Below are positions 16,316 to 39,390 of a DNA stretch of 61,100 nt, one piece after another. Every line of letters starts with the position of its first letter. Within the stretch, counting starts at the first letter, position 1. The notes beneath the pieces are model-generated. The model had not been told where the DNA came from. It saw only the letters and a list, made by a program, of their open reading frames with translations, and did no database searches. This DNA comes from an uncultured delta proteobacterium (GTDB taxonomy: Bacteria; Desulfobacterota; RBG-13-43-22): positions 1 through 61,100 of the forward strand of contig CAWDKY010000026.1 in assembly GCA_963802945.1 (NCBI GenBank), given 5' to 3'. The position numbers and the translations under genes were made by a program.

Positions 16316-16394
16316 ATATTTTGGGATCATCGGCTCTTTGAGCGTGTTCAAACACTTATTATGGAGTGAATTAATAAGATTAGAGGTGAATAGA

Positions 16395-16751
16395 ATGGAA
16401 TGTCAAAAATGTGGCCAACTTATCGAAACCGGGGGAGAAAGGGAAATGCACGGCCAAACCTTATGTGAAGACTGTTACATCGATGCCCTTTCTCCGGTAA
16501 AAGCCTGTGACCCCTGGGCGGTTCATTCGGCCAAGCGACTTGAGCAGGCGGGGACGGGCATTCAGGTAAGTGATCTTCAGAAAAAAATATTGACATTTTT
16601 GAAAGAGTCCGGCCCGGTGTGGCCGGACATAGTCTGCCGGAAACTCAATATCTCTCTCAAAGAATTCGAAAGGGAATTTGCTTCCCTGCGGCACATGGAA
16701 AAGACCCGAGGGGAAAAAATCGGCGACCAGGTCTTCGTCCGTCTTTGGTAA
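16395..16751 (+). CDS. Hypothetical Zn-finger plus winged-helix protein
   Basis: CQKCG..LCEDC..CDPWAV..EREFASLRHME. Confidence 0.75.
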   Translation: MECQKCGQLIETGGEREMHGQTLCEDCYIDALSPVKACDPWAVHSAKRLEQAGTGIQVSDLQKKILTFLKESGPVWPDIVCRKLNISLKEFEREFASLRHMEKTRGEKIGDQVFVRLW

Positions 16752-16848
16752 TCAAATATAAATAAAGTCGGTTAAGATTAGAAAAGGGGATGCCGTAAGC
16801 TACATACCGAACCCGTTAATTTAAAACTTTCGATGAAAGGAGAAAGCC

Positions 16849-17388
16849 GTGAAAATTCTCAACCTTTATTTTTCTTCCACAGGCAATACCGCCAAAGTGG
16901 CGGACCGGATAACCACCACCGTGGAGCACCTGGGACATCAGATCGACACAGTAAAAATCACCGGGGACGCCGAAATCGATTTACTCAGTTATGATTTTAT
17001 CTTCGTGGGGTCAGGCGTTTATCAGTGGATGCCTGGCAAAGTCATGCAGGAGTTTATCTTGGCAAGGCTTACCCAATACGTCTCCGCCGGGGAGATCAAG
17101 CCCGCTTCCCCCCGGCGCCTCGGGAAAAAATGCGTGGTTTACTGTACCTTCGGCGGAGCTCATACCGGCGTTAACGAAGCCCTCCCGGCCGGGAAGTACC
17201 TGGGCCAATTATTTGATCACCTGGGTTTTGAAATCGTCGCTGAATGGTATTTCGTTGGCCAATATCCGTCAGAAGGACGATTGAAAGATATGTCGATCCT
17301 GGGCCGTCTCGGTAATATCATGGGCAGGCCCAGCGATGCTGACCTCGAGGATATAGCCGAAAAGGTTACGGGGGTGCTGCGGATATAA
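16849..17388 (+). CDS. Flavodoxin family protein
   Basis: YFSSTGNTAKVA, YDFIFVGSGVY. Confidence 0.85.
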   Translation: MKILNLYFSSTGNTAKVADRITTTVEHLGHQIDTVKITGDAEIDLLSYDFIFVGSGVYQWMPGKVMQEFILARLTQYVSAGEIKPASPRRLGKKCVVYCTFGGAHTGVNEALPAGKYLGQLFDHLGFEIVAEWYFVGQYPSEGRLKDMSILGRLGNIMGRPSDADLEDIAEKVTGVLRI

Positions 17389-17652
17389 TGTGTCTTAAGG
17401 AACTCAGCAGGGACAAGGTTTAGACTTGAAAGTCGAGATCTGGAGAAAAGGATTCGAAGAAATCAAAAAAATAATGTCTGAATCCCATTGTCTTTTCTTA
17501 AGAAATTTTTTAAATATAGACAAGGAGGATTTTAAGAAACAATTGACATTATCATAATTTGACGGAAGAAGGACTTGACTTGACAGTTAGGTAGCAAGGG
17601 GGGCCAGATACCTCCTGGATTGTTAGCGGCAATTAAAAAGGAGGTAACGAAG

Positions 17653-17890
17653 ATGACCACCCAAGAGGAGCTTATCAGAAAAAAACAAAGTTTGATAGAG
17701 TTAGCTGAGTTTTTACAGAACGTCTCCCAGGCCTGCCGAATTAACGGGGTATCCCGACAACATTTTTACGATATCAAGAAAGCCTATGAAGAGCAGGGGA
17801 TTGAAGATCTGAAGGAAAATGCCGCCGATAACCCTGCTTGAAGAACCGTGTGGCTCCTAAAGTGGAAGAAGCGGTAGTGAACATGGCCTG
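17653..17890 (+). pseudogene. IS481-family transposase N-terminal remnant
   Basis: LIELAEFLQNVSQACRINGVSRQHFYDIKK, then frameshifted KNRVAPKVEEAVV; no DDE domain follows. Confidence 0.75.
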
Positions 17891-18116
17891 ATCCACTCCT
17901 GTCTACGTTGCTGTGGTGGTTTGCCGGTATATCTTATATTGCACCTGTCATTTCCAGGGCATGAACAACAACCTTCTGATTGGATTTATCCGTAATGATC
18001 TCCACATGGACTCTCCGTCTTTGCGCTGTGATAATAGCTGCAGCAATTTCCTCGGACTTGAAACAATTTCCTTAAATGATGATCTCTGCAGATAGATATC
18101 ATTTCCAAAAACCATC

Positions 18117-19133
18117 TCAACCCAATACGGTCCTTGCTATAGAACTGAACCTCTTGGAGAGATCAAAATCCTTCAAGTCTTTAGTGGCCAGTTTTTTTGA
18201 CGGGCACATGTGCAAACACTTGCCGCAGAAATCTCCGCAGATGATGCCAAAGCAATTATCACGCATAACATGGTCAAAAATCTTGGAGAGATCAAAATCC
18301 TTCAAGTCCTTAGCGGCCAGCAGGTCAGAAATGTTGATATTCCCGCTCGTAAATTCAGAATAAAAGTGCATAAGCTGTCCCGGCCCGTCGGGGATTTTAA
18401 TATCACTTCGGCCGCCGGAGCCCTTAACCATCCCTAATAATCCGTACATACACCTGATATTGTCGTGCATAGAGTAAGTGATTGTTTTACCATCTATGGT
18501 TAACGACTGGCTTTCAGTCTTGGATAATGCGCCCGTTGGGCAGAGACGCACACACTTAATACCGCACTCTTTTTTGCGGCATAGAGGCGGGCCGTTATAG
18601 AGCGGTGTAGGCTCCAATTCGGCCGTAGTGAGTATCGAGTTGAATCGCTGCATCGAACCGAATTCAGGCGAGAGCCCGAGACCGTTCCAGCCGAGGTCTA
18701 CAATTCCGGCAGCCGCGGCAGCGTGCCGATGCGAGAATTCTGCCCGCGCCTTGTTGGTCGCCAGCCATTCCTCATAATTCTTATATTGCGAAGTCATCCA
18801 TGTGGGCAGGAAACACAATGTTTTATACCCTTTATATTCCAGCAATTTCGCCATTCGGTTGACCATGCGGGAGCTTTCGAGATTGGTCAGCCCATATCCA
18901 TAGAAGAGATACGGCGTGATGGTTTTGCCGGGCTTATCATATTCTCCCCACACATCCGCTGCTCCTTGAAATAGGTGCAGCGCAATCGAGACGACTGACT
19001 TGCAGCCGGGCAGGAAATCGGTCGGCTTATGACCTTCGGGTGCATTCGCAAAGCGCTCTGCCGGAGCAATTCCGACAAGGTCAGCACCCCAATCCAGCAA
19101 GTTTTCAATGACAGCCTTTGTTAGCTTGTCCAT
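18117..19133 (-). CDS. Epoxyqueuosine reductase (QueG)-like cobalamin/4Fe-4S protein
   Basis: GADLVGIA, FSHRHAAAAAG..GWNGL..PEFG..RFNSILT, C..C..CVRLCP, CGKCLHMCP. Confidence 0.8.
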   Translation of the reverse strand: MDKLTKAVIENLLDWGADLVGIAPAERFANAPEGHKPTDFLPGCKSVVSIALHLFQGAADVWGEYDKPGKTITPYLFYGYGLTNLESSRMVNRMAKLLEYKGYKTLCFLPTWMTSQYKNYEEWLATNKARAEFSHRHAAAAAGIVDLGWNGLGLSPEFGSMQRFNSILTTAELEPTPLYNGPPLCRKKECGIKCVRLCPTGALSKTESQSLTIDGKTITYSMHDNIRCMYGLLGMVKGSGGRSDIKIPDGPGQLMHFYSEFTSGNINISDLLAAKDLKDFDLSKIFDHVMRDNCFGIICGDFCGKCLHMCPSKKLATKDLKDFDLSKRFSSIARTVLG

Positions 19134-19506
19134 ATTCATTCCTCCTTGATAAATTTGATAAGTCATCTGCTCCAGTCTCAATCAGGCAATAGATGACGAT
19201 TTTTCTTTCATAATTCATGGGGATTATTTCTTTAATTCATCATTTTACGTAAAATCATTTTACACCTATTCCGGTGTCTGGAAATGTTATAAAAATATCA
19301 ATATCACGGAAAAAACATTTCGATGTCGCCTGCGCATTCGCCTTGCATGTAGTTGCCCTGGTTATGCCTGCCTTTGCCGACCTTTCCAATCATATAGTCC
19401 ACAAGCTCATCAGGATCTGTAAAATAGAAGGGTTCCTTGCCGGCCATCATGACTCTTTCCTTTTTTACTTCCCATAGTGAAAGATTTATCGATGCGTCAT
19501 CTCCCC

Positions 19507-20250
19507 TTAAGGAAGGATTACCTTTTCTGTCTCCACTTTCCCTCGAACAGGGTTATTGATACGGCTGTAATATGGCCCTTTGGAGAGGTAGAGCGCAGCC
19601 AACGGGTTATGCCCCAACACACGATCTTTAACAGCGAGTACCGTGCACGGGACTTTGCAATATTTTAAGAACAGGGTATCATGCCCCACACACAGACCGA
19701 GGAGCACGGCCAGGTCCACGTCCTCATTATTTATAATCTCAGCCTGGGCGATCGGGTTGCACATTGGTTCCATGAGTTCTGGGCCCATGATCTTCTCATG
19801 GCCCTCAATTCCGATGAACTCCTTAGGAATGCGGCCTACCTTGCAGTTTACGGATACCACCTCGAAGTCATTGTTTTCGAAGATGGTGGTGACCATGCGG
19901 GCTTCTTCCCTCAATCCCACGCAAAATGCGAGCCCGATCCTCGAATATCCGCACTTGTGCACAAACTGAATGGTCTCTTCAAGCCTAGGTATTTTTGTCC
20001 TGAGGCCCTCCGGTGTGAGTTCGTAACACTGCGCCTCCTGGATGGAAGCGAGCCTCGAGAATTCCCGTATCTCCCGATGCTCATACTGTCCGGCACTCTT
20101 TTCCATGACCTCCGGGAAACGCTTCATGGGACAAAATATCGGTGCTTTATCAAGGGGCGGTAAAGGGTCGTTGACAGGTAGAATCGGATAGCAGGAATTA
20201 CCGTTACATTTTGCACAGGTACTTTTTTTGTTTCCTGGGTCTCTACTCAT
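19507..20250 (-). CDS. DUF1847-like metal-binding protein
   Basis: RIGLAFCVGL, MCNPIAQA, GLCVGHD, VKDRVLGHNP. Confidence 0.85.
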   Translation of the reverse strand: MSRDPGNKKSTCAKCNGNSCYPILPVNDPLPPLDKAPIFCPMKRFPEVMEKSAGQYEHREIREFSRLASIQEAQCYELTPEGLRTKIPRLEETIQFVHKCGYSRIGLAFCVGLREEARMVTTIFENNDFEVVSVNCKVGRIPKEFIGIEGHEKIMGPELMEPMCNPIAQAEIINNEDVDLAVLLGLCVGHDTLFLKYCKVPCTVLAVKDRVLGHNPLAALYLSKGPYYSRINNPVRGKVETEKVILP

Positions 20251-20396
20251 TGATCCACTTCTTCTTTCATAGAATAATTATGGTTTCCCGGATGATCCTT
20301 TTCGGGAATCCTAAAAAATCCCTTCATCATATGGAATACTGGTGCTCATTAAATTTCACAGATAATGTTTCGCACGTATAACGTTTCTCCCATAAA

Positions 20397-20660
20397 TCAC
20401 AGCCGCCTTATTTTTCCATCCTCGATCAGATACCTTTCCTGTAATATATCAGGATGTTTGCTGTTTTTTGTAAAACACTTGCAGCAGTATCGGCCCTGCC
20501 TATCTCCATCGATATGGCGAGTATTGCTGGTGCGTGAAAAGCTGTTACATCCGAAGCCGCCTAGTTCAGAAGGTATGATGAGCTTCTGGAGACCGATATC
20601 AAGACAAAGTTTCTTTCTCTTTTTTAAGAATAATGTTCCATATTTTTCTCGGTACACCAT
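20397..20660 (-). CDS. Small hypothetical protein, possibly a fragment
   Basis: GAGG RBS; CxxC-like residues; no family recognised. Confidence 0.3.
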   Translation of the reverse strand: MVYREKYGTLFLKKRKKLCLDIGLQKLIIPSELGGFGCNSFSRTSNTRHIDGDRQGRYCCKCFTKNSKHPDILQERYLIEDGKIRRL

Positions 20661-20986
20661 GCGTTTGGATATGACCTCTCTGTTGGCTCATTGCCTCACA
20701 AGTGCAGCAACATCTCTGGATTCTTTATCCATCAAATCAGTTGGTAAATAACCCCGTACTCCGGCACGGGGTATTCAGGGGGTTTTGAAATAAAAAGAAG
20801 AAGTCATCGACATTCCTGTTCATAGAGCTTCCTTGTATTTGCTATGCAATATGAAGCTGCAGAAATTTTTATTATAGAAATTAAAACGAACGTTCGATAT
20901 AAATAAAACAAAATAATTGCCTTGTCAAGAAAAAATTAATAGTGTTAAATTTCAACAAGAGATCTCGAAGAAGAAGGAACAACATC

Positions 20987-21574
20987 ATGCCAAAAATCGT
21001 TGACCGCGATCAATTCCGGGGAAAACTGCTGGAGGGCTCTTTCAAGCTCTTCAGTCAAAAAGGGTATGCCAATGTTACGATTCGTTCGATAGCTCAGGAA
21101 ATCGGCGTCTCTACAGGGAGTTTGTATCATTATTTTAAGAACAAAGAAGCTATACTCGAGCAGATGTTTGCCTATATCCAACAACGGACCTTCGGGGAAT
21201 ACCGAAGAAGGATCGATGGAATAGACGACCTGGATAAACGCCTCAGGATAATCACTGATTACTGGAAAATCCATATGAGTGAATATCAAGACCTCATGCT
21301 CCTAGCCATTGATTATTATAGACATCATGGCCGTTCCAAAAGGGCGAAGAAGATCTTCAACGATTTTGCAACATATTATATTCATGTCTTCTCCGAGACC
21401 TTCCAGATCACACCTGCGAGTGCTGAAACACTCTGCACCTATTTTGTCGGCATAGTGTGGACTTCTCTATTGGCTCCGGAAATATTCAGTCTGAATGACC
21501 ATATCAACTTCCTCGCCGGGTACATTATAGAGGCTATGAAATCTGCAGATCGCAGACCTGGACTCCGTAGGTAA
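20987..21574 (+). CDS. TetR/AcrR family regulator
   Basis: MPKIVD...LFSQKGYANVTIRSIAQEIGVSTGSLYHYF; palindrome CGAACGTTCG at 20887-96 upstream. Confidence 0.92.
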   Translation: MPKIVDRDQFRGKLLEGSFKLFSQKGYANVTIRSIAQEIGVSTGSLYHYFKNKEAILEQMFAYIQQRTFGEYRRRIDGIDDLDKRLRIITDYWKIHMSEYQDLMLLAIDYYRHHGRSKRAKKIFNDFATYYIHVFSETFQITPASAETLCTYFVGIVWTSLLAPEIFSLNDHINFLAGYIIEAMKSADRRPGLRR

Positions 21575-21676
21575 GCAAAGACGCTTTTGATGGCAGAGCC
21601 AAAGCCGTTCCAAAGGAGTTTAATCGGGATTGATTCCTTGAATCCTTCAATGACAAATATTTTTGTGACTATCTGG

Positions 21677-23134
21677 TTACCAGGAGCTTTCCGACGCAGC
21701 CCCTTGACCGGCAATGCGGCCGAAGGCCAGGGCCTCAGGAAGATTGCTCCCGCTTTGGTAAAGGTGGCCGAAAAAGGACCCCAGCTCTCCGGCTTTATAA
21801 AGCCTGGGGATGGGCCTGCTTTCCATCTCCAGGACCTGGGCCCGGCTGTTGTGTTTCGGCCCGCCCTGGGTGTTGATGATGCTCAAACACAACTCCACCC
21901 CGTAAAAAGGAGGTCCTTCGATAGGGGCCATATATTTTGATGAACGTCCAAAGGCGTTCGTCCTTCCTTCCCTGGAATCCAGGTTGTTTTGATTGATTGT
22001 ATTCTCCAATCCCAGCGGATCGATGCCCAATTTCGCAGCTAATTCTTTTATCGACTCACTCTTAACGATCCACCCCTTTTCAATCTCGGCCCTATTATTC
22101 CGGCTCCATTCATCCAGTCCCTGCCAGGAGGCGTAGCCTACCTTTGAATTCTTCAGCCCATAGAGGGGCCCGCCTTTTATAAAATTCTCATCGAAGATAC
22201 CGTAAAAAGGAAGATTGGGATATTCGGCTCGTTCATGATCAAAATAAGTGAAGGCCAGCGGTCCTTTTCGGTGCGTGATAGACATCGATTCGTTGATAAA
22301 ATTTTTCCCATACCGATTTACAAAAACAAAGCTTCCCTTGTGCCGCCTGAAAGCCAGGGCCACCCCGATCTTCTCCGTGGGTCCTTTTAAAGCCGCCCCC
22401 TGCCATTCCGTAGTGGCAAAGTGCCACTGGTCGGCCCCAAGCTCATTAGCTATCTTTATCCCGTCGCCGGTATTATGGGGTGTGCCGAAGGGATACAGTT
22501 TAAGACCTGGAAAATTGAAATGCCCTTGCATTTCAAAGTTATTTTCATAACCCCCCGTGGCCAGGACAACTGATTTTCGGGCCATCAAAAAAGTGGACTT
22601 CCCTTTCTGTTCAGCCATAACCCCGCGGATGGTATCGGTCTTTGGATCTTTTAGGATCTTTTTCGCCGCAGTCTCATAAAGGATTTTGATCTTTCGCTGC
22701 CTTACGTTAGCAGCCAGCCGTTCAAATAAACCTTCCCCCAAACCTGCCGACCAGTGGTCGATACATTGCGCTCCTGGCAGTGTGGGAAAGGTTGGGGTGT
22801 TTCTGGTGCGGAGCTTTAATTCAATGCCCCAGTCCTTCAGTCTTTCGGGAAGGGAAACCATGGCTTGGGCCAAGGTGCGGATAAGATCTTCGTCCGACAC
22901 GGTGCCGAAAGACAAGGCTTTGTAATAATCCACGGCTTCGCTCACATTATTGGGAAGAAACAAGTTGCCCACGCTGCAGGCCGTGTTACCTCCTCCGAAA
23001 GGGGCTTTTTCGATGATGACGACTTCAGCACCGCTATCCCGGGCGGCGATAGCCGCACAGGCTCCGGCACCTCCATAGCCCAAAACGACCACATCCGTCT
23101 GAATATCCCATTCCATGTTTTTCTTCATGGTCAC
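21677..23134 (-). CDS. FAD-binding oxidoreductase (fumarate reductase/3-ketosteroid dehydrogenase-like)
   Basis: VVVLGYGGAG, VVLATGGYENN, NTGDG, TQGG, IPRLYKAGE. Confidence 0.88.
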   Translation of the reverse strand: MTMKKNMEWDIQTDVVVLGYGGAGACAAIAARDSGAEVVIIEKAPFGGGNTACSVGNLFLPNNVSEAVDYYKALSFGTVSDEDLIRTLAQAMVSLPERLKDWGIELKLRTRNTPTFPTLPGAQCIDHWSAGLGEGLFERLAANVRQRKIKILYETAAKKILKDPKTDTIRGVMAEQKGKSTFLMARKSVVLATGGYENNFEMQGHFNFPGLKLYPFGTPHNTGDGIKIANELGADQWHFATTEWQGAALKGPTEKIGVALAFRRHKGSFVFVNRYGKNFINESMSITHRKGPLAFTYFDHERAEYPNLPFYGIFDENFIKGGPLYGLKNSKVGYASWQGLDEWSRNNRAEIEKGWIVKSESIKELAAKLGIDPLGLENTINQNNLDSREGRTNAFGRSSKYMAPIEGPPFYGVELCLSIINTQGGPKHNSRAQVLEMESRPIPRLYKAGELGSFFGHLYQSGSNLPEALAFGRIAGQGAASESSW

Positions 23135-23781
23135 CTTTTTTTCATTTCCTTATCCCAACCGGTTTTCTCCCAATATTTCTTATTCATTATTGGAATTAAA
23201 GATTCCGGAGTTAAATGATTTCCCAACCCCGAATTAAATAAATTATCAATATTCTCGATTAGTTCTATTGGACCGAGGATCTTATCTGTATGAATGATAT
23301 GGTCGGTCTGGCCATCCCAAGTAATATTCCATTCAACATTTAGCGGTCGATAAAGAACATCAAATGATATCGAATCAAGACTGGGATCAGCAAAAACCCA
23401 ACGATCATCAATTAAAATCTGAACGAAGCAGTGATAAAAAGGATTGTTTAAAAATTGAACATCATCTCCTATCAAAGGTTGTAAAAATTCTCTTTTCAAA
23501 GGAATTTTAACTAATCTACTGAGTATGAATGAATTCCTGAGCAAAGCGATCAGTAAAAGGGCTTTATTCCAACAGGCCCCATACCCCTTTTTTGCCGTCT
23601 CCGATGCCTTGACCTTCACTCCATCAGAGCAAAGCGGATAGTTATCCCGAACGAATTCAAAAAGTGTAATTACGTTGGAATGTGTTGGCCCCAATATTTT
23701 TTTTGACAGATTTTGTAAAATAGGGTTATGAAAATCTCAATAATAGGTTTCTTGTAGATATAGCTCTTCACCATTTTTCAT
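23131..23781 (-). CDS. Transglutaminase-like protein with in-frame TGA at codon 15
   Basis: GGAGG RBS, ATG 23781, MKNGEELYLQETYY*DFHNP, in frame with GACWNKA..YHC..WVFADP (Cys-His-Asp triad). Confidence 0.75.
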
Positions 23782-23829
23782 AGCCGACCTCCGTTTATTA
23801 TTTATTTCTCAAAGAAAAACCAAAATGTT

Positions 23830-24621
23830 TCAGCGGCCCATGAAAACAGGCTCCCTTTTTTCCAGAAAGGCGGTAAAGCCTTCTTTGACATCCTGGCTCT
23901 TCCTCACCACTCCCAATACATAGGCCTCATAATCGATGGCCTGGGCCAAATCCCATTTTAAAAAATTTTGCAGACCCCGTTTGGCGAAGGAAATCGGGAT
24001 CGGTGCATTCCTGGCGATCCGGCAGGCCAGCTCCCACCCGGCCTCCCCTAATTGCTCATGGGCCACAACTCGGTTAACCAACCCGATGCGCAATGCTTCT
24101 TCGGCCTCGATCACCTCTCCGCTGAAGATCAGCTCCGCGGCCTTCGCATAGCCCACCAAACGGGGAAGAAAGTAGATGCCCCCCCAATCGGGATGGAGTC
24201 CCCGGCGGGTAAAGACCTGCCCGAAACGGGCCTTCTCGCTGGCGATACGCATATCGCAGGCCAAGGCCAGGTTGCATCCCCCTCCGGCAGCCACCCCGTT
24301 GACCACTGCGATAACCGGCTTTTCCATAGTGTTGATGGCCAAAACCGCTTGTCCCATGGCCGGGCGCAAAGCGGAAACCTCTTTGGACAGGGCCTGCACT
24401 GAGCCGTCGACAAATTCATTGACATCACCACCGACACAAAAAGCCTTTCCCGCGCCGGTGATGAGAACCACCCGGACCTGAGAATCGGCAGCCGTGTCAT
24501 TTAAGACTTCCACTAATTCCTGACGCATCCTACCGCCGAAGGCGTTGAGTTTCTCCGGACGGTTCAAAGTGACGAGGGCTACCTGTTCTTTCTTTTCCAA
24601 GAGTATGTGTTCCAAGTTCAT
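23830..24621 (-). CDS. Enoyl-CoA hydratase/isomerase
   Basis: LNRPEKLNA, FCVGGD, GVAAGGG, PDWGG. Confidence 0.92.
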   Translation of the reverse strand: MNLEHILLEKKEQVALVTLNRPEKLNAFGGRMRQELVEVLNDTAADSQVRVVLITGAGKAFCVGGDVNEFVDGSVQALSKEVSALRPAMGQAVLAINTMEKPVIAVVNGVAAGGGCNLALACDMRIASEKARFGQVFTRRGLHPDWGGIYFLPRLVGYAKAAELIFSGEVIEAEEALRIGLVNRVVAHEQLGEAGWELACRIARNAPIPISFAKRGLQNFLKWDLAQAIDYEAYVLGVVRKSQDVKEGFTAFLEKREPVFMGR

Positions 24622-25553
24622 TAGAAGTTCTCCTTAAAAAAATGAGTTAGTGCCGAAGATCCCCTTTCGGCCTGATCCATCAGCTCGGTGATGATGGCTT
24701 TTATCGGCTTAAGGCTGTTGATGAGTCCCGCACTCTGACCGGCGGGCATGAGAGTATTCCCCCGTTCGCCCTGCTCATTGGCGTAATCAAAAACCTTGAG
24801 ATGGGCTTTCGATTCCCTTCCCTGTTTACTCAGGGCCTCTGCTGCCTGGTTTTTTAAGACCCTTAAGGGCATGGCTTCTCCGCCGACCAGAAGGGTCCCA
24901 GTGTCGCTGGCTTCAATTAGGGCTTCTTTGTAAAATAAGGGGACCGAACATTCCGGGGTGGCTAAGAAACGGGTCCCTATCTCTACCCCCTCGGCCCCCA
25001 AGGCTAGGGCCGCTAAAAAGCCTCGAAAGTCGCTGATGCCCCCGGCGGCGATGACCGGAATATCCAGGGCGTCGCATAATTGGGGGACCAGACACAAGGT
25101 GGTCAATTGGCTCCGGCCGCCGTGGCCGCCAGCCTCAAAACCCATGGCAATGACTACGTCTACGCCGGCCGCCTGGGCCTTCAACCCCATGGCCGTGGTG
25201 GAAACCTTGTGCAGGACCGTGATCCCGGCCGCCTTGGTCCGATCCATAATTTTGATCGGGTTTCCGCCTGAAGTTGTAATAACCCGAATCCCCGTTTCAA
25301 GAACGATCTCCAGGGCCTCGGCCGCGTTGGGGGTATGCAAAGGAATGTTGATGCCGAATGGTTTGTCGGTCATGGCCCTGGCCTTCTGAATTTCTTCCCG
25401 GAGCTTGGCCGCCGGCAGGGTTGAAGACGCGATCTGACCGAAACCGCCGCTTTCGGATACTACTGCAGCCAGGTGACCAAGGGTGATTTGTCGCATGGGT
25501 CCCTGGATTAAGGGAAATTTAATTCCTAACAATTTGATGAGTCTGTTTTCCAT
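24621..25553 (-). CDS. Nitronate monooxygenase/FabK-like flavoenzyme
   Basis: PLIQGPM, GFEAGGH, IAAGGI, IGTRF, AGQSAG. Confidence 0.88.
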   Translation of the reverse strand: MENRLIKLLGIKFPLIQGPMRQITLGHLAAVVSESGGFGQIASSTLPAAKLREEIQKARAMTDKPFGINIPLHTPNAAEALEIVLETGIRVITTSGGNPIKIMDRTKAAGITVLHKVSTTAMGLKAQAAGVDVVIAMGFEAGGHGGRSQLTTLCLVPQLCDALDIPVIAAGGISDFRGFLAALALGAEGVEIGTRFLATPECSVPLFYKEALIEASDTGTLLVGGEAMPLRVLKNQAAEALSKQGRESKAHLKVFDYANEQGERGNTLMPAGQSAGLINSLKPIKAIITELMDQAERGSSALTHFFKENF

Positions 25554-25718
25554 GAGTGTACATCCTCTCCTTGGCTGCCCGTTCCATCCCCGCCAGCTAA
25601 TCCAAGAACGAGAGCTTGGTCTCACAAATGGGTTACTCTGGCCAATCTACAAAACTCCTGCCCGTTACAAATTCCGCAAGTCTTCTGAGTGCCTCCAGGG
25701 CAGCTTCCTTCCTTATTA

Positions 25719-27038
25719 TTACTCCGTCGTTTCCATACCTTGGCCCGCCTCTTTTCTGGTTTGTTCATCAAGCGAGGAGAATTTTTTTTGAATTTCTTCC
25801 AGATCCTTCTCGCTCTGTTCGCCAATGGCTCCCTCCGAAAAGAGCTGGTTGATAACCTCTCTGTTGTAATGAAGCACCTCGGCCATAATTTCTCGTGTGT
25901 GCTGCCCGGCAAGCGGTACGGGATCAAACGTCTCTGCAGTCTCGGATATTTTGATGGGATTCCCAACCGATTTGTACGATCCCCTAACGGGATGATTGAC
26001 CTCCACGACCATATTTCTCGCCAGGACCTGGGGATCAGAAAGGGTACGGTCAATGGTATTGATCGGCGCCCAGGGTACTTCGAATCGGTTGAAAAGCTCC
26101 CCCCATTCTTTGATTGTCTTCGTCAGAAAAATATTCTCCAGCGTCTCATTAACCATATCCTTATTGGCGTAACGCATTATTCCATTGGAAAACATCGGAT
26201 TTGTCATTAGATCTTCACGCCCCATGGCCTGGCAGGCGGCTTTCCAGTGCTTATCGTTGAAACAGGCGATTGTGAAATAGTAATCCTTGGCACGGTAGGC
26301 CCTGTAAGGGATGAGCGTCTCATGGCCGCTCCCCTGTGGACCGGACACAAGACCGCCTACCAGAAAATACTCAGATATATAGGTCAAGAGTGATACCTGG
26401 CAATCCAGAAGGGCCACATCCAGCATAGTACCGCTCCCAGTTTTTTCCCGCTTCCATAACGCCGACAAGATAGCTATGGCAGAAAAAAGAGAGCCTGCCA
26501 AATCGCCCATGGCCAGGCCCATTCGTACGGGGGCCCAACCTGGCTCTCCCGTTAAGCTCATGCTCCCGCCCCTAGCCTGTATCGTGATATCGTAGGCCGG
26601 CATATTGGAATCGGGTCCCGTTTTCCCATAACCGCTCAGCGAGCAGCATATAATATCATCTTTGACATTCTTCAGAGTTTTATAATCGGCCCCCATCTTG
26701 GCCAGGGCGGAAGGCCGCGAGTTATCGAAGACCACATCCGAAATCCGAACAAGGTCGTAAAAAACCCTCAGTCCTTTTTCGCTGGCAAGATCTATTCCCA
26801 TGCTTTTTTTATTTCGGTTTATGGCCAGAAAATAGGCTCCTATTCCGCCCACATGATACTTGGCGGGAATTCTCGAAAAATCACCTGCAAAGGCCCCACC
26901 TTTGGGATTTTCGATCTTGATGACCTCTGCGCCAAGGTCAGCCAGTATCATGGTACAATATGGTCCTGCCAACACTGTGGAAAGGTCCACAATCCTAATC
27001 CCCTTCAGGGGTAGCTGATTGAGTGGCATTTTATTCAC
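25719..27038 (-). CDS. CaiB/BaiF (family III) CoA-transferase
   Basis: PLKGIRIVDLS..AGPYC..LADLGAEVIKIE, NRNKKS, AYD. Confidence 0.93.
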   Translation of the reverse strand: MNKMPLNQLPLKGIRIVDLSTVLAGPYCTMILADLGAEVIKIENPKGGAFAGDFSRIPAKYHVGGIGAYFLAINRNKKSMGIDLASEKGLRVFYDLVRISDVVFDNSRPSALAKMGADYKTLKNVKDDIICCSLSGYGKTGPDSNMPAYDITIQARGGSMSLTGEPGWAPVRMGLAMGDLAGSLFSAIAILSALWKREKTGSGTMLDVALLDCQVSLLTYISEYFLVGGLVSGPQGSGHETLIPYRAYRAKDYYFTIACFNDKHWKAACQAMGREDLMTNPMFSNGIMRYANKDMVNETLENIFLTKTIKEWGELFNRFEVPWAPINTIDRTLSDPQVLARNMVVEVNHPVRGSYKSVGNPIKISETAETFDPVPLAGQHTREIMAEVLHYNREVINQLFSEGAIGEQSEKDLEEIQKKFSSLDEQTRKEAGQGMETTE

Positions 27039-27096
27039 CTCTTTTTTCGCTTTGATTTATTCATTTCCGGGGGTAGTGATAAGCCCCTTTTAAACA

Positions 27097-27501
27097 TTAA
27101 CCCACAGGGATGTTTTTTTGGATAAAATTGACGATTTCTTCGAAAGAAGCCTTTTGTGTAAAGACCTCTGCGACACCTATTTTCTTCAATACGGGAATGT
27201 CCTCATCGGGTATCACTCCGCCCATTACCAAGAGCACGTCCTCCATATGGGACTCTTTCATTTTTGTAATAATCTTTTCGGCAAACTGTTTGTGCGACCC
27301 GGATAAGATGCTCACACCTATGATGTCGACATCCTCCTGGATGGCCGTATTGATAATCTGCCCCACCGTGTTGCGCAGTCCGGTATAAATGACCTCCATC
27401 CCCGCATTCTTCAGTCTGGAGACCACGAGTAAGGCTCCCTTATCATGTCCATCCAGGCCAGCTTTGGCTACCAGAATTCTGATTTTTTTCTCCTCGTTCA
27501 T
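27097..27501 (-). CDS. Cobalamin-binding small subunit of acyl-CoA mutase
   Basis: AKAGLDGHDKG (DxHxxG), SILSGSH, GGVIP. Confidence 0.93.
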   Translation of the reverse strand: MNEEKKIRILVAKAGLDGHDKGALLVVSRLKNAGMEVIYTGLRNTVGQIINTAIQEDVDIIGVSILSGSHKQFAEKIITKMKESHMEDVLLVMGGVIPDEDIPVLKKIGVAEVFTQKASFEEIVNFIQKNIPVG

Positions 27502-27600
27502 TTTGTGTCTCCCATTTAAAGGAATATGCCATAAAATTACTGGATGCCTCGTCCAGTCGTTTCAGGAAAATCGTTACCCGGATGTCGGTATTATGAAATT

Positions 27601-29323
27601 TTATTTTGCCTCGCCAAATACGTTCCTTAAAACCCGACAAATTTCACCCATAGTCGTATATTCTTTCACAGCTTCAACGAATAGGGGTATGAGATTAATC
27701 CGGTCGTCCTCTGCCTCATTTTCGATTTTTTCCAGACAGGCCTGTACCTTCCGGTTATTCCTATTCTTTTTTATCATCTGAAGATTTGCAATTTGCCGCT
27801 CCTCGGCGTTCTCTCGCCGATGGGCCTTATAGAGAGATGTCCGCGGCACCGATACTTCTATCTCGTCGGGCTCGGTATACTTGTTAACTCCCACCCGAAT
27901 TACTTTGCCGGTTTCCACATCGCGCTCGATAGGCGTCCGCTGAGGCGACGATCTCCCTCTTCATCCAGCCGCTTCCAATGGCCTCGATTGCCCCACCTCT
28001 CTCGTCGATCTTCCGGATCAGTTCGAATATCTCCGCTTCGTAGCGGTCAGTGAGGTTTTCTATGTAGTATGAACCTCCCAAGGCATCATACACATCGCCA
28101 AGTTCACACTCCTCAACGATGATCCTGGCCGCGTCCGCGCCGAGTTGGATTGCCTCGATGCTGTGCCCCAACCCTAGAGGCTCGTCGAAGGGAGGCTCCA
28201 TTCCCGGTGGTTCGCCAATCATCGCCGAAAAGACGGCCCCAACGGCAATACGGATCAGATTGTTAAGTGGCCTCTGCTTGGTGCAGGGCCAGTAGCCGGC
28301 AAGCCCGCCGCCTAAATCGCGGTATATCCAATTGGCAGGCTTTTTTGAATGGAATCGGTCTCGCATAATCTTGGCCCATACCCGGCGGGCAGCTCGACGG
28401 CAAGCAGCCTCTTTCAGCACCTCCATACCACCGCCGAAGTTGAGAAAGGTCACCTGTTTAGCAAATAGATCGACGTCGAGCCCTGCCTCAATGGCCGTCT
28501 GAAAATAGGAGATGGCATTGGCAAAGGTAAAGGCTACTGCCTGCACTCTGGTTGCGCCGGCCTCCCGCATGTGAAAGCCACATATGCTTATGGTATTCAT
28601 CTTAGGTATGTGCTCGGCACAATAGGTGAAGGTATCGCGTGTCATCCTCATTGAAGGCCTAGCGGGGAAGAGATGCGTACCTCTGGCCACATATTCCTTC
28701 AAGATATCGTTCTGAGGAGTCCCCCGCAATTTTTCCGGCGGAATCCCTCTCTTTTCGGCCAAGGCAATATACATAGCCAGCAGGATATTGGTTGTGCCGT
28801 TGATTGTCCAGTTGGAGGCTATCTTGTCAAGGTCGCGGTCTCCGGTCCAGGCCTCGTAGATGATCTCGAAGTCTCTGAGAGTATCTACGGCCACCCCGAC
28901 GCGGCCTACTTCGCCATTGGCCAATTCATCATCGGAATCATACCCGATCTGTGTGGGCAAATCGAATGCGATATTCGGCCCGCCACCTCTCCTGTTACTT
29001 TTATCCATATAAAAATCGCGCATATCCTCCGCTGTGCCGTAGCCCGAATAACCGAAAGCTGTTTTGATCATCTTGCCGGCACCAAGTTGTTTCCCTCTAC
29101 CCCACAGGGCACTATAGAGGGGGATGGCATACCTTCCTGAGGTAAATGGAAACTCGCCTGGAAACCCCACTTGCCTTAGATAATCGTGGTCCTTCAGGTC
29201 GGCAGGCGTGTACAGCTCAAGGGGGCTTTCCGGTAATCCCAGCCGCTTCAGGGATTCCTTAAGAGTGCTCTCCTCCCATTTTGCCCTTGCCGCTTCTATT
29301 CTGTTCTTTTCTTCCGATGTCAT
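27601..29323 (-). CDS. Divergent acyl-CoA mutase large subunit (MCM family), frameshift near 27925
   Basis: GFPGEFPFT, AFDLPTQIGYDSD, GEVGRVGVAVD, QNDILKEY, LGGSYYIE; C-terminal VGVNKY..TMGEIC in a second frame. Confidence 0.88.
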
Positions 29324-29398
29324 ACGCTGTACTCCTCTTTGTAATATCTCCACCAATTTTACTATCTCCCTCAGATCGCAGTGCTGTTCGTTATTTCT

Positions 29399-30169
29399 CT
29401 AATAATGGATTTTTTTGCTTGAGACCTTCCTGGCTGATGAATTGATTTTTGCGAGTTCTGACATATACTTATATGCGTCTCCCGGAAAGCTAGTGATTGC
29501 CAATTCCAGCGCGCGACCAGATGATGAAAAATAGATTCGCTCCATAACCAGGAGAGGATGCCCTTCTTTGACTTTGATCATTGAGGCAATTTTTTTATCG
29601 GCTACCGAAGCGGAAATGGATTGTTCGGCACGCCTTACCCCTTCTAAGGCTTCTCTTTCCACTCTATCGATTAACAATGAACCGTCAAAATTTGTTAGCC
29701 GAATGTTTTTTCCTAATTCTTCCGGAACATAGGCCTGAAAAAAAGCACAATGTTCGGCATACAGATGACGGATTCCCTCAAATAGATATAACCTTCCGTC
29801 TTTATTCAGTTTCATTGAACAGGCCATGTCGAGACTAATCGCCGTTAATTTTTTAGAAAATAGCTTTAATATGGTCTGTGCACCTAACTGATGGAGGTCG
29901 TCAACATAGCCGTAAAGATTGAGATTTAAAATAGAGCCCCTATGTCGGGTAATGAAAGTCCCTCGACCCTGTTCTCGCCGAATAAGCTCATCATTCTCAA
30001 GAATACTCAATGCCTGTCTTACCGTAATCTTACTTACACCGAATTCCTGACAAAGCTGATCTTCAGTTGGAAAAATTTCATCCGGTTTGAATTCGCCATC
30101 AATGATTCGTTTCCTCAGCAACTTTTCCAATTCAAGATAGAGAGGAGCTGTAGTTTTATTTAACATCAT
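29399..30169 (-). CDS. GntR (HutC/UTRA) regulator
   Basis: PLY..L..I..GEF..FPTEDQLCQEFGVSKITVRQAL..GRGTF. Confidence 0.9.
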   Translation of the reverse strand: MMLNKTTAPLYLELEKLLRKRIIDGEFKPDEIFPTEDQLCQEFGVSKITVRQALSILENDELIRREQGRGTFITRHRGSILNLNLYGYVDDLHQLGAQTILKLFSKKLTAISLDMACSMKLNKDGRLYLFEGIRHLYAEHCAFFQAYVPEELGKNIRLTNFDGSLLIDRVEREALEGVRRAEQSISASVADKKIASMIKVKEGHPLLVMERIYFSSSGRALELAITSFPGDAYKYMSELAKINSSARKVSSKKIHY

Positions 30170-30499
30170 CAAACTCCTGTTCATCATAAAAAAGTAAATC
30201 TAATTTAATTAAAAATTCATTATAATATTATAATGAATTTGTCAAGAAGTATTTATGCGATTTTTCATAATATGAATTTCCTACTGGGCTTAACAGTTTA
30301 AAAATACGAAATTTATAAGTAAAAAGGTCATGCTTCTTTAATGATGAGGAAGGGGATGACTTAAGAATCCCGGAAGTGTTTGAGATGGGGGGATTGTCTA
30401 ATCGAATGAAAAGATGTTTTATGGCTTTGAATAGACTTCGAAGGCGTCTATTCATCTAACAATATAAATAGGTTCTATCTGGAAATTATGGATTTCCAG

Positions 30500-30992
30500 A
30501 TGGAACCAAGGGCACTAGACACTTGGCCCCGTTCAAAACCATGATATCCTGATTCATCTCCAACGTGGTGTACAGGACCGTCGGCTCAAAAGTGATCCGC
30601 TTTTCCATCAACGTTGCCGTGGCTGGATACAATTTCTCCCCGCAAAACTTGGGCAGCCATTCCTCTTTTTACGCCTCTGTCTCAAACTACAAAATCGGCA
30701 TTGCCATCAAAAGGGGTGAAAGGGTCCCCAGGGCCAGACTGCCATCTTCCCAAGCCAGTTCTTACACCATGATGGCCGCATTGAGGGCCGAGCGTCCCAT
30801 GTCATAGCCTCCAAATTTCTCTGGGATGATATTGGGACAAAATCCCAGCTCCCAGACCTTGCTTAATAGCTCGGCCGGCAGTTCGTCTTTCTCATCGCAA
30901 TCTCTCGAAATCGGCCGCAGCTCCTTCTCGGCAAACTTACGCATCATGTCCTGAATCTGTTTCTGGTCTTAGTCTAATGTAAAATCAGCCAT
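30500..30992 (-). pseudogene. Acyl-CoA dehydrogenase pseudogene
   Basis: MADFTLD*DQKQIQDMMRKFAEKEL..IPEKFGG..MV*ELAW..IL*FETEA*KEEWLPKF..LNGAK; four in-frame stops; 3' truncated. Confidence 0.85.
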
Positions 30993-31086
30993 TGAAATAT
31001 CTCCTTTATCCTTTTACAAGGGTTATTGTTATAGATTATTAGGCCATTTTAGGCCGGATTCGCTAAAGGCTTGCCTAGCCTAGATC

Positions 31087-31569
31087 CTATTCATTGAGAG
31101 TGTTCTTTTCTATTTCAATAAACCTATTCATAACAAAATTGAAAAATTTAAAGCATCTGTTTTTGTATTTCTCTTCTTTCCGATACCTCTCTGCCTCCTC
31201 GGGTTTACTGAAGTCACATTGGGTGAGATTTTGGCATTGAGTGGCTCCAAATTTTTCTATAAAGTCTTTATAAAGGGCGTTTACGGCGGATATGGCCTTG
31301 TTTCTCTCTTCTTTATCTTCAAGGGGAAAGCAAGTTTTCCCTTGTCCTGAACGCAGACCAATAGCCACGTTGCTCCCGACCAATAAACCGCAAGTCGCAT
31401 CGCCTGAATTGACGGCGCCTAAATATCCGGCGGTCGCCCAGGAATCTTCGCCAAGCGGTAATCCCCAAATCTCTTGCAGCCCCTGCAAGGTAGCTTCAGC
31501 TCAAGTGGAAGCAACAAAGGTTTTGAATGTCCGTTCTAAAATCTCTTCATAATTTTTCTCTTTTGTCAT
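31087..31569 (-). CDS. C-GCAxxG-C-C family selenoprotein (Sec at codon 23, 160 aa)
   Basis: AGGAGG RBS, MTKEKNYEEILERTFKTFVAST-TGA-AEATLQGLQE..TCGLLVG..TQC..RC; SECIS-like hairpin follows the TGA. Confidence 0.88.
31473..31503 (-). promoter_or_regulatory. UGA plus bacterial SECIS element
   Basis: TGA (31501-03), 11 nt spacer, CTTGCAG-GGG-CTGCAAG perfect 7-bp stem with G loop. Confidence 0.8.
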
Positions 31570-31630
31570 TTGATCCTCCTAGATATGTGACCCAACGTTT
31601 AGGTGAAAAGCATTATCTCTTGTATTTGGA

Positions 31631-32074
31631 CTAATCGGTCCAATCAACGCCGCAGGATCGGCAGCGGCGGGCGCCTCGGAATAGCTGGGCACCGCAGTTT
31701 TTACAGCTGAACCATTTCATTTCGTGCTCGATCCACTTCTCTGTGCCGAGTTGACTCCAAAGGGGAATGGCGCGCTTTATCTGGCTTCGCGCGGCTTCAA
31801 ATGAAAACTCCTCGACGATGTTGCACGGCCAATCAGGACAGCGATGACATCCATCGAGACTCTTCTCTTGTGTGCAGCTCTTGATTGGGCAGGTTTTGCA
31901 TAATACAAATTGATTTTTGGAAAGACATCCTTCACATTTGATGTCATTTTGATCGACGCTATAGGCTGCGGCCATTACAGCTATGAATTTAAGGTTGCCG
32001 GATAAATAAGCCATTCGGATGCCGCAAACACCACAGTATAGTCCACAGGGGCTGAGCAAGTTTTCATCAATCAT
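31631..32074 (-). CDS. DUF3795-like Cys-rich protein
   Basis: PCGLYCGVC..CEGC..CKTCPIKSC..CHRCPDWPC. Confidence 0.85.
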   Translation of the reverse strand: MIDENLLSPCGLYCGVCGIRMAYLSGNLKFIAVMAAAYSVDQNDIKCEGCLSKNQFVLCKTCPIKSCTQEKSLDGCHRCPDWPCNIVEEFSFEAARSQIKRAIPLWSQLGTEKWIEHEMKWFSCKNCGAQLFRGARRCRSCGVDWTD

Positions 32075-32184
32075 GACGATACACCTCCAATCATTTGAGG
32101 ATAGGAATTCCCTACAATTTGAATTTCCCTTTGAAATACGTATCCCTTACATTTTTCACTTTATCCTTTAGGCCATAATGGGCC

Positions 32185-33027
32185 TTACGGTGATCGTTTA
32201 GACACAGGCACAGCGGCGACCATTTCAGTCGCGAGCGTTGAAACGGCGCATGATCCGAAGATTCCAAGGTCATCGGACAGCGTAGCCCGGGCCAGTCCTG
32301 TTCCCTCGTAAGAGACCCGTAGGTCTACGGCAACGCAGATCCACTGACTCGAGGGCGGTCGGTTCAAATGCATCGTCACTTCAGAGTTGATGAATCGAAG
32401 GCCCTCAGGAACCATGAACGAGATGCCTGAAAGGTAGTCCGCCGCTGCAGCCGCGCGGGCCGCCGGCGAAAGAGGTTCATGGGAAGTCAGCAAAAATGGA
32501 ATGTTTACCCAAGCGCAGGCGAGCTTTTCGCGTTCGCCAAACGTGATCGGCCGAATCTCTGCGACGTCGATGAACCGCGGGGGCTCGCTGGCTGGACGTA
32601 TGGGCTTCGCCAACGCATCGTGGCCCATCGGCGCCGGCCCGAGCGCGAGGTCGGGGACGTTAATCCCCTCCGGCGATGATTCTTTAAGGAACAGGCCCAA
32701 ACATCGCGCAACAAGGACGTCATTGATCATCATACTCGCGTCTGCCACCCGCACCCGGCTTCCCTCTCGTATGACCGTGTGAGCAATCCGGACGTCACCC
32801 AGGGGAGCCGGCCGGAATAGTTCGACCGACGATCGCGCCAGACGAAACCCACCGGTCCCAATCGCCGAGTCGAGCGCTTGCACGAGCGTCGCCTCGATCG
32901 CTGCGCCGTGCATCACATCGCCCCATGGGCCCAGCGTGTGACTTGTGGGTCTGAACACGTCGCCGGCGCGTTCGAAGAGATATGGAGATACGTCCATAAC
33001 AGTTTTCGAGTGATTGCCTATCTCCAT
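32185..33027 (-). CDS. Thioesterase family (TesB-like double hot-dog), GC-rich
   Basis: GPWGDVMHGA, LFRPAP, FINSEVTMHLNRPP. Confidence 0.85.
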   Translation of the reverse strand: MEIGNHSKTVMDVSPYLFERAGDVFRPTSHTLGPWGDVMHGAAIEATLVQALDSAIGTGGFRLARSSVELFRPAPLGDVRIAHTVIREGSRVRVADASMMINDVLVARCLGLFLKESSPEGINVPDLALGPAPMGHDALAKPIRPASEPPRFIDVAEIRPITFGEREKLACAWVNIPFLLTSHEPLSPAARAAAAADYLSGISFMVPEGLRFINSEVTMHLNRPPSSQWICVAVDLRVSYEGTGLARATLSDDLGIFGSCAVSTLATEMVAAVPVSKRSP

Positions 33028-39373: not shown

Positions 39374-39390
39374 AAAAATATATCCTTAAT

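Follow-up and report, generated by a model that had tools for sequence, protein, structure and literature searches.

What does the adenosylcobalamin-dependent mutase of an uncultured delta proteobacterium act on, and what route do the genes around it serve? The question is posed by a gene set at 21677-30187 of a 61,100-nucleotide stretch of contig CAWDKY010000026.1 (assembly GCA_963802945.1; the whole stretch is called the window here), which an earlier note, written from the sequence alone, had described as an operon around a highly divergent vitamin B12 (B12)-dependent acyl-CoA mutase with a different substrate. Judged by sequence comparison, the enzyme is a member of the acyl-CoA mutase superfamily and, within it, of a clade recognisable by the signature DEPLGLGHS; it is not a methylmalonyl-CoA mutase (MCM), a 2-hydroxyisobutyryl-CoA mutase (HCM), a pivalyl-CoA mutase (PCM) or an ethylmalonyl-CoA mutase (ECM) as identified by gene context, nor a member of the subclade linked to glycyl radical enzymes. 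Its substrate is likely a dicarboxylic CoA ester of the succinyl type that carries a substituent, and on balance the gene set is rather probably an accessory operon for a free, substituted succinate-type dicarboxylic acid, under GntR-type control and built around a clade-specific B12 mutase. To our knowledge, only a handful of acyl-CoA mutase specificities have been characterised, each of which opened a pathway.

The placement of the enzyme comes from two mutually agreeing trees, one built with FastTree (172 rows) and one with the quick mode of IQ-TREE (87 rows). Their references comprised M. petroleiphilum HcmA, Xaut_5021, Xaut_5043 (which we take to be PCM), E. coli Sbm, a Streptomyces protein and a canonical MCM alpha and beta pair; ECM was represented by two fused mutases of 660-665 aa, identified by the context of an adjoining crotonyl-CoA carboxylase/reductase gene (TIGR01751, 622 and 596 bits). 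In both trees all proteins with the DEPLGLGHS signature form one clade with an SH-like support of 100, apart from MCM, HCM, PCM, ECM-by-context and a large group of split MCM-like proteins. The window mutase lies outside the pair of Sbm and MCM alpha in both, and the ECM-by-context rows sit on a long branch of their own (stem length 1.04). Within the clade, the window mutase falls in a subclade of 23 rows (support 100) whose hosts are Thermodesulfobacteriota, Spirochaetota, Leptospirales and Syntrophales metagenome-assembled genomes (MAGs). The sister subclade, of 19 rows, holds proteins of Smithella, Desulfatibacillum and Desulfonema together with an intact paralogue from the same genome as the window (contig C32). 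Identity between the two subclades is 45-50%, and their pocket segments differ, ELGGGLAGYW and FGYSGYG in the window's subclade standing against QPITAHIGCSS and GKYGGFG in the sister. Because the best match to the window mutase in 13 other genomes of the same genus is only 54% identical, the operon is an accessory trait. The branch itself is neither rare nor unnoticed: the clade is large, and the sister subclade is in print already as the candidate mutase of alkylsuccinate synthase islands (PMC13685792).

The clade also contains a small, long-branched subclade in lineages of aerobic type (L177, L133 and L155, from Rhodoblastus, Mycobacterium and Marmoricola), in which AEH or AGH replaces GYH and the pocket segment reads GGEHAWGNAY. 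These proteins are not ECM, since the Rhodoblastus genome has a separate fused mutase beside ccr.

Family profiles agree with the trees. The two open reading frames (ORFs) into which the large-subunit gene is split jointly span PF01642 profile positions 10-512, the N-terminal piece scores 382.3 bits with TIGR00641 (cut-off 303.8), and the small subunit 136.8 bits with TIGR00640 (cut-off 57.45). The small subunit reads DGHDKG, then SIL and GG, matching the B12-binding motif DxHxxG...SxL...GG. The large subunit likely starts at the ATG at 29323, which matches the first residue of P0123, a public protein of 573 aa from a 471-kb contig and the same 90% cluster. Its closest solved structure is the large subunit of HCM (4r3u, E 1.4e-84), and IcmF was matched weakly (105.8 bits). 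Identity is 35-41% to solved or plasmid-borne MCMs, 36.9% to M. petroleiphilum HcmA and 36.5% to Xaut_5021 (HCM-like, the best X. autotrophicus Py2 plasmid match); plasmid records held no mutase above 41% identity to the window's. In a word-based protein search with 8000 candidates scored, the best 120 were nearly all of about 570-600 residues, with identities up to 85%. These relatives are labelled methylmalonyl-CoA mutase in their source databases, some carrying the automatic label hcmA.

The residues that are kept and those that are replaced bear most directly on the substrate. Motifs were compared residue by residue with solved MCM and HCM chains and in a 29-row alignment, and every motif change that had been read from the sequence proved real. 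MCM RQYAGF becomes FGYSGY(G), with the Tyr kept and an insertion of about 12 residues ahead of it, and SISGYH becomes SICGFH, with the His kept. RTHSQTSGW is replaced by RDLGGGLAGYW and HTNSLDEAIALP by EPPFDEPLGLGHS, the latter taking the place of the MCM pocket segment HTNSLDE. Two further segments are replaced, VSMTMNG by SNWTING and LSFFWGIGMN by FLNFGGGME, and QNDILKE..R is kept, with its Gln and the Arg four residues further on. All clade rows of the alignment conserve three residues of MCM (the RQYAGF Tyr, the ..R(N/G)T.. Arg and the GYH His), while the four barrel segments depart from MCM; the signatures common to the clade are the insertion before the Tyr motif, SN(W/F)TIN, a G-rich FxxFGG segment and PP(F/Y)DEPLGLGHS. 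MCM and ECM-by-context share the Tyr and Arg, in whose places Ile and Gln stand in HCM and Leu and Asn in PCM. In MCM, Tyr89 and Arg207 bind the carboxylate and His244 is catalytic. A succinyl-type substrate is indicated by the kept Tyr and Arg, the feature that sets MCM and ECM-by-context apart from HCM and PCM. That the mutase has a substrate of its own is upheld in so far as it is not MCM, HCM, PCM or ECM-by-context in either tree and reaches only 321.6 bits on the MCM equivalog NF006944 (cut-off 876), and is tempered in that the conserved pair suggests a succinyl-type ester, not a wholly different chemistry.

Profile searches of the ORFs with Pfam and NCBIfam assigned eight gene types, all on the minus strand, exactly as the earlier note had listed them. 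From the regulator downwards, the features are:

29399-30187, minus: GntR/HutC-type regulator with a winged helix-turn-helix and a UTRA effector domain, first gene of the set (Pfam GntR 1.8e-19, UTRA 9.6e-17)
27884-29356, minus: mutase large subunit, N-terminal piece, TIM-barrel substrate domain (PF01642, E 1.3e-107, profile positions 10-426 of 512)
27927, minus: one additional base, a G on this strand, which breaks the large-subunit gene of the mutase in two
27601-27926 (ORF 27601-27918, 105 aa), minus: mutase large subunit, C-terminal piece, in the other frame (PF01642 positions 422-512, E 4.6e-17)
27097-27501, minus: mutase small subunit, B12-binding, of base-off/His-on type, 134 aa (PF02310, 3.4e-19)
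25719-27038, minus: family III CoA-transferase of dicarboxylate type (PF02515, 1.4e-113)
24621-25553, minus: FabK/nitronate monooxygenase (NMO)-like FMN enzyme, candidate enoyl-thioester reductase (PF03060, 1.5e-56)
23830-24621, minus: crotonase-fold protein (ECH_1) without the hydratase glutamate pair (PF00378, 2.2e-65)
23131-23694, minus: small transglutaminase-core protein of Cys-His-Asp fold (PF01841, 4.5e-7, 30.5 bits, cut-off 23)
21677-23134, minus: soluble FAD_binding_2 flavoprotein, resembling fumarate reductase, 3-ketosteroid dehydrogenase (KstD-like) and TcuA (PF00890, 2.6e-38)

The NMO/FabK-like ORF extends to 25625 from its first start codon, the likely start being the ATG at 25553. 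Intergenic gaps are short, the largest being of about 165 bases (before the NMO gene) and about 135 bases (before the transglutaminase-like gene), and the transglutaminase-like and FAD_binding_2 genes share a 4-base overlap. The regulator reached no NCBIfam equivalog cut-off.

The partner enzymes lean towards dicarboxylates. The closest solved relative of the CoA-transferase is the human succinate-hydroxymethylglutarate CoA-transferase (9br7, E 1.3e-83), and its best NCBIfam rows are succinate-glutarate and succinyl-CoA:mesaconate transferases, both far under their cut-offs. The PrpD-like partner found in related loci is nearest to iminodisuccinate epimerase (2hp3, E 2e-52), whose substrate is a substituted succinate, and next to cis-aconitate decarboxylases. 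Relative to the C. acetobutylicum crotonase Crt (5z7r), the window crotonase reads GGGCN for GGGCE and GQVF for GQPE (Asn117 and Phe137). It is accordingly unlikely, by its sequence, to be a hydratase, and the hydration step that had been proposed for the pathway is improbable, both hydratase glutamates being gone. The orthologue in L236, a related metagenome locus, is 77% identical and carries the same Asn and Phe; the loss is therefore a conserved change and not decay. Methylmalonyl-CoA decarboxylase was absent among the best 60 matches of this crotonase in the Protein Data Bank (PDB). The NMO-like protein does not reach the FabK equivalog TIGR03151 (262.9 against a cut-off of 453.1), and its nearest solved structures are FabK enoyl-ACP reductases (7l00, E 3.4e-64). 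Among solved structures, those closest to the FAD protein are flavocytochrome c3 fumarate reductase and 3-oxosteroid 1-dehydrogenase (E about 5e-33); the protein aligns over its full length with TcuA under the cut-off (162 against 369) and has homologues in 22 of 301 genomes of the phylum. For the transglutaminase-core protein there was no NCBIfam match, no PDB sequence match and no second copy in the genome.

Related loci were collected with clade-specific DNA motifs; a single-protein search had given one distant locus, and a family alignment mostly generic mutases of 40-45% identity. A scan with the DEPLGLGHS motif returned 80 loci, 15 of which lacked a mutase and were dropped as chance matches, and with a second motif 18 stretches were obtained from about 185,000 species genomes. 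The second scan, the earlier loci and four metagenome contigs together made a set of 19 loci of 63-84% identity. The counts below, from tblastn and Pfam, are lower bounds, many loci being cut by contig ends, and the loci are kin and not independent of one another:

Small subunit: 16 of 19 loci
Crotonase lacking the second glutamate: 12 of 19
PrpD-like protein: 10 of 19
AMP-ligase: 8 of 19
Aldehyde dehydrogenase: 5 of 19
MeaB: 5 of 19
Old yellow enzyme (OYE): 4 of 19
Family III CoA-transferase: 3 of 19
Nitroreductase: 3 of 19
NMO: 1 of 19
Crotonase of the window's type: 1 of 19
GntR regulator: 1 of 19 (L278, a 49% homologue, divergent, beside the mutase)
Transglutaminase-like protein: 0 of 19
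FAD oxidoreductase: 0 of 19

Ten of the 19 loci encode at least one of AMP-ligase and family III transferase, which bears out the CoA activation step of the earlier proposal. Metallo-beta-lactamase (MBL)-fold proteins recur in three loci of this comparison and in three more by Pfam, and amidase or C-N hydrolase genes occur in three related loci. The closest locus with context, L236 (83% identity), runs amidase, mutase large subunit (mutL), mutase small subunit (mutS), CoA-transferase, PrpD, a first crotonase (crotonase-a), NMO, a second crotonase (crotonase-b) and nitroreductase. Its orthologues of the window's transferase, NMO protein and crotonase are 72%, 71% and 77% identical (crotonase-b being the counterpart), and CoA-transferase orthologues of 71-72% lie downstream of the mutase genes in both L236 and L239. 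The order CoA-transferase, NMO, crotonase is common to the window and L236, and on this comparison the window's set resembles that of L236 with PrpD and crotonase-a taken out and two genes of its own added. Conservation of the neighbourhood is thus seen in this order, and fails for the transglutaminase-like and FAD genes; moreover, the partners most conserved in the subclade (PrpD-like protein, second crotonase and MeaB) are missing here. The window copy is, in other words, a trimmed version relative to its relatives, without an epimerase candidate of the PrpD type, the second crotonase or MeaB.

A fuller set stands elsewhere in the same genome. On C32 an intact, one-strand module (11735-20516) holds MeaB, CoA-transferase, PrpD-like protein, crotonase-a, mutS, a 640-aa ORF whose family was not assigned, and mutL. 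Its CoA-transferase is 42%, its PrpD 45% and its crotonase-a 46% identical to their counterparts, and its mutL is 49% identical to the window's; this large subunit branches at the base of the glycyl-radical-linked subclade. In two related loci, L224 (6823-9183) and L225 (8541-10802), about 2.3 kb of long ORFs without a Pfam match lie between the mutase and the crotonase-ligase-PrpD genes.

The sister subclade supplies the nearest biological context. When five of its genomes were searched for mutase and for pyruvate formate-lyase (PFL)-like enzymes, the glycyl radical enzyme lay 4-6 kb from the mutase in three, 15 kb away in one and on another contig in one. In D. alkenivorans DSM 16219 the order is sigma-54 regulator, mutS, mutL, PrpD-like gene, activase, small ORF, glycyl radical enzyme, small ORF, AAA_5 and VWA, and in a Desulfonema MAG it is mutS, mutL, MeaB, PrpD-like gene, activase, glycyl radical enzyme, small ORF and AAA. 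In a 2026 comparative study of Smithella, family B ass loci are described as carrying an 'hcmAB' mutase, argK, MmgE/PrpD and enoyl-CoA hydratases, with a similar set at ass locus I of strain AK-01, and the mutase is given as the candidate for the rearrangement step after fumarate addition (PMC13685792); an older genome paper credits that rearrangement to a 'methylmalonyl-CoA mutase' (PMC5606693). The mutases of these ass/mas islands (Desulfatibacillum, Smithella), whose role is a proposed one, share with the window mutase the clade in both trees, the clade-wide signatures (DEPLGLGHS and others), the Tyr, Arg and His residues and the split into large and small subunits, and PrpD-like and crotonase neighbours are kept among the relatives of both subclades. 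They differ in forming a separate, fully supported subclade with other pocket segments, and in having a glycyl radical enzyme and activase nearby, whereas at the window there is none, activation of a free acid falls to a CoA-transferase or ligase, and PrpD and MeaB are lacking from the window copy. The papers searched describe neither a distinct subclade lacking a glycyl radical enzyme nor its conserved module.

These data would fit the following route. The CoA-transferase, whose family is clear and whose substrate is presumed, would make the CoA ester of the dicarboxylic acid. The two-subunit mutase would then shift the thioester carbon, converting a substituted succinyl-CoA into a substituted malonyl-type CoA ester; this step is suggested because the carboxylate-binding residues are kept and the sister subclade sits in alkylsuccinate synthase islands. 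The crotonase-fold protein without hydratase glutamates is a candidate decarboxylase or isomerase of the mutase product, and the FabK-like enzyme may reduce or form a C=C bond next to the thioester. The flavoenzymes would act on a C=C bond before or after CoA activation, rearrangement and decarboxylation, and the transglutaminase-like and fumarate-reductase-like proteins are add-ons particular to the source genome. Besides the kept Tyr and Arg, two observations speak for a succinyl-type substrate with a substituent: the operons of the sister subclade make substituted succinates, and the nearest relatives of the transferase and of the PrpD-like protein handle dicarboxylates and substituted succinates. 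More tentatively, and with less than even confidence, we propose that the subclade as a whole is a B12 mutase for a substituted succinate of non-hydrocarbon origin, working in a widespread, undescribed anaerobic route. There a ligase or transferase would activate the acid, a PrpD protein like iminodisuccinate epimerase would epimerise it, the mutase would rearrange it to a substituted malonyl-CoA, and a crotonase devoid of the glutamates would remove the carboxyl group. Among the neighbours of the relatives, the genes for amidase, C-N hydrolase, aldehyde dehydrogenase and ene-reductase hint at an amide- or aldehyde-bearing precursor.

Several systems offer points of comparison. MCM (P. shermanii 1REQ, human 2XIJ, E. 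coli Sbm) shares with the window mutase the fold family with PF01642 and PF02310 domains, Tyr89, Arg207, His244 and QNDILKE, and the expected chemistry is alike, the thioester carbon of a succinyl-type CoA ester undergoing a 1,2-shift; it differs in clade, in an identity of only 35-41% with the window protein falling under the equivalog cut-off, in the segments RTHSQTSGW, HTNSLDE, VSMTMNG and LSFFWGIGMN, all of which are replaced, and in that the B12 domain of the window enzyme is a separate small subunit. ECM acts on methylsuccinyl-CoA, itself a substituted succinyl-CoA. The ECM-by-context proteins keep Tyr and Arg like the window mutase, and differ in being fused proteins of 660-665 aa on a long separate branch, with pocket segments (RYGVQVNSLGL and VQLPAWNEALGLP) unlike the window's. 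The E. coli set sbm-ygfD-ygfG-ygfH (scpABC) converts succinate to propionate. It shares the logic of a CoA-transferase, a mutase and a crotonase-fold decarboxylase, whereas its mutase clade and transferase family differ, and the window operon has no MeaB/ArgK gene and has two extra flavoenzymes. In the indoleacetate operon of Aromatoleum aromaticum, a phenylsuccinyl-CoA mutase (IaaGH) is paired with the CoA-transferase IaaL (PMC8360864). The likeness is one of concept: a family III CoA-transferase works together with a B12 mutase, which there turns an aryl-substituted succinyl-CoA into a benzylmalonyl-type CoA ester and back. The decarboxylating acyl-CoA dehydrogenase of the iaa operon has no window counterpart.

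Whether the operon is intact depends on the extra base. The N-terminal ORF ends ...SADAYRARCGNRQSNSGGS-stop (reading ...ADAYRARCGN...stop), and the second frame reads IERDVETGKVIRVGVNKY... (IERDVETGK...). P0123 is intact across the break (...ADAYQRDVETGK...), and its uninterrupted sequence ...SADAYQRDVETGK... puts the extra base at window position 27927, as a computed position check confirmed; the hint in the earlier note that the enzyme would need repair is thereby made concrete, the large-subunit gene being split by that base. Elsewhere in the protein a single residue distinguishes the window from P0123, and from VETGK onwards the two C-terminal sequences agree completely by eye. The gene contains no other stop or gap. 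Sequencing runs matched the window at no more than 0.10 of the sampled words, and four runs led to no sequence from the source sample and to one relative's contig across the break, a 151-base contig of a relative 91% alike (run X3), which also lacks base 27927; among the runs listed as containing window sequence there was no RNA run. The same shifted end is seen in P0001, a protein of 479 aa encoded on a Logan contig from another assembly, which has one more altered residue at the break. Against L236, L237 and L239, the N-terminal piece has a dN/dS of about 0.04-0.07 and the C-terminal piece a pN of 0.125-0.145 and a pS of 0.76-0.92, its synonymous sites being saturated. The low dN/dS of the former, and the low pN with saturated pS of the latter, indicate strong purifying selection on both pieces.

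Other genes of the assembly are split as well. In nadC (quinolinate phosphoribosyltransferase; 10890-11761, minus strand), which lies beside nadB, a frameshift falls inside the N-terminal domain, with profile positions 1-44 on the ORF 11441-11761 and 45-82 on the ORF 10890-11513. A second mutase large subunit of the same genome (contig C53, 169251-170793) is split in two frames beside a C5 run, and a PFL-like glycyl radical enzyme lies about 14 kb upstream of it (153737-155617). Two related loci have genes in two ORFs each, the NMO gene of L236 (8245-9281) and the AMP-ligase gene of L282 (11463-13035), from which it follows that frameshifts are common in those assemblies too. Since three conserved genes, among them one for NAD synthesis, each carry a single-base break, residual error in the assembly is the likelier cause, and the break at 27927 is likely such an error, at roughly twice the probability of a real mutation.

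The opposite account, that the window copy is a decaying remnant with a real frameshift, lost PrpD-like, second crotonase and MeaB genes and an operon that does not work, we hold to be possible and rather unlikely, a judgement independent of the substrate readings. The shifted end that P0001, from another assembly, shares with the window speaks for decay, and so does the intact paralogous module on C32; set against these is that, besides the extra base, a single residue separates the window from the intact P0123, with no further stop or gap and strong long-term purifying selection on both pieces. The window does lack partners found in 10-12 of the 19 related loci, and relative to L236 the PrpD and crotonase genes between the CoA-transferase and NMO genes are missing. 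The breaks in nadC and in the C53 mutase fit residual single-base assembly errors instead, and in the sequencing data only one 151-base contig of a relative crossed 27927, the runs matching at most one-tenth of the sampled words. Where the substrate is concerned, an ordinary MCM operon of the E. coli sbm type, in which the transferase makes succinyl-CoA, the mutase methylmalonyl-CoA and a crotonase-fold decarboxylase propionyl-CoA, is improbable. Its mutase would keep Tyr, Arg, His and QNDILKE, as the window's does, and the trio of transferase, mutase and glutamate-less crotonase resembles the sbm-ygfG-ygfH set; yet the score on the MCM equivalog, 321.6, stays below the cut-off of 876, no solved or plasmid-borne MCM exceeds 41% identity, the clade is separate with full support and its four barrel segments differ throughout, and the crotonase is not near a solved methylmalonyl-CoA decarboxylase (none among the best 60 PDB matches). 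The MCM labels that relatives carry in databases favour the ordinary operon, whereas within the same genome the C53 mutase, though frameshifted, outranks the window gene on the family profile (its halves score 385.9 and 375.6 bits). Still more remote is a mutase for hydroxyacyl- or branched monocarboxylic acyl-CoA of the HCM, isobutyryl-CoA mutase (ICM) or PCM type. The top PDB match (4r3u, E 1.4e-84), the split into large and small subunits, some automatic hcmA labels and the name hcmAB given to the ass-island relatives in the Smithella study (PMC13685792) all lean that way, against Ile/Gln or Leu/Asn in HCM and PCM where every clade row of the alignment has Tyr/Arg, the position of both outside the clade in both trees, identities of 36.9% to M. 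petroleiphilum HcmA and 36.5% to Xaut_5021, and a partner transferase of dicarboxylate type.

The reading of an operon for a substituted succinate has its own difficulties, which weigh against it together. The large-subunit gene as assembled has no single uninterrupted frame, and the operon may not work in its source organism given this frameshifted subunit. The PrpD-like gene, the second crotonase, MeaB and the MBL-fold protein are absent from the locus, MeaB (a G-protein chaperone, MeaB/ArgK, often though not always encoded near such mutases) having no match on the window contig and copies on C28 and C32 of the genome. The transglutaminase-like and FAD genes recur in none of the 19 loci, which as incomplete and related loci count for less than their number, and no operon gene lies within 1.5 kb of nine loci of FAD homologues in other genomes. 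No PFL-like glycyl radical enzyme was present in 22 stretches (the 30-kb window stretch and 21 related loci), so the link to fumarate addition is by analogy with the sister group only. The substrate class is deduced from residues and gene neighbours. In the trees the window mutase groups with none of the characterised mutases included, and ICM, IcmF and the Aromatoleum IaaG and IaaH lay outside that sampling. The literature search returned no assay of any clade member and no paper on alkylsuccinyl-CoA.

Were the substituted-succinate reading to hold, its consequences would extend beyond this genome. No assayed enzyme is known to carry out the alkylsuccinate rearrangement of anaerobic alkane degradation, and the branch that holds its candidate now has a second, separate subclade, which acts without a glycyl radical enzyme and on free acids and so would be much easier to test in vitro. 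An intact module on C32 of the same genome and a near-identical, intact public copy of the window enzyme exist for such work. Its substrates, if shown, would define a new B12 rearrangement and correct the 'methylmalonyl-CoA mutase' label that is very common in sediment genomes.

On one flank the gene set is bounded by a plus-strand TetR gene (20942-21574), and past the GntR regulator come two short ORFs without a Pfam match (30228-30455 and 30565-30807). Promoter-like sites numbered 16 (shuffles: mean 11.7, sd 3.1) and terminator-like sites 11 (mean 11.7, sd 3.2); because these counts are near shuffle level, the scans do not set the operon boundary. No Rfam match up to E 0.1 was found in 20000-32000, and a cobalamin riboswitch was accordingly absent from the matches. 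Beyond the regulator, 31087-33027 (minus strand) carries small redox-type genes (C_GCAxxG_C_C, DUF3795) and a two-domain acyl-CoA thioesterase (4HBT_3). Further on, the minus strand at 35834-39981 encodes two proteins of 365-403 aa that bear double [4Fe-4S] motifs at the C-terminus, have no other Pfam domain and alternate with three DUF6125 paralogues.

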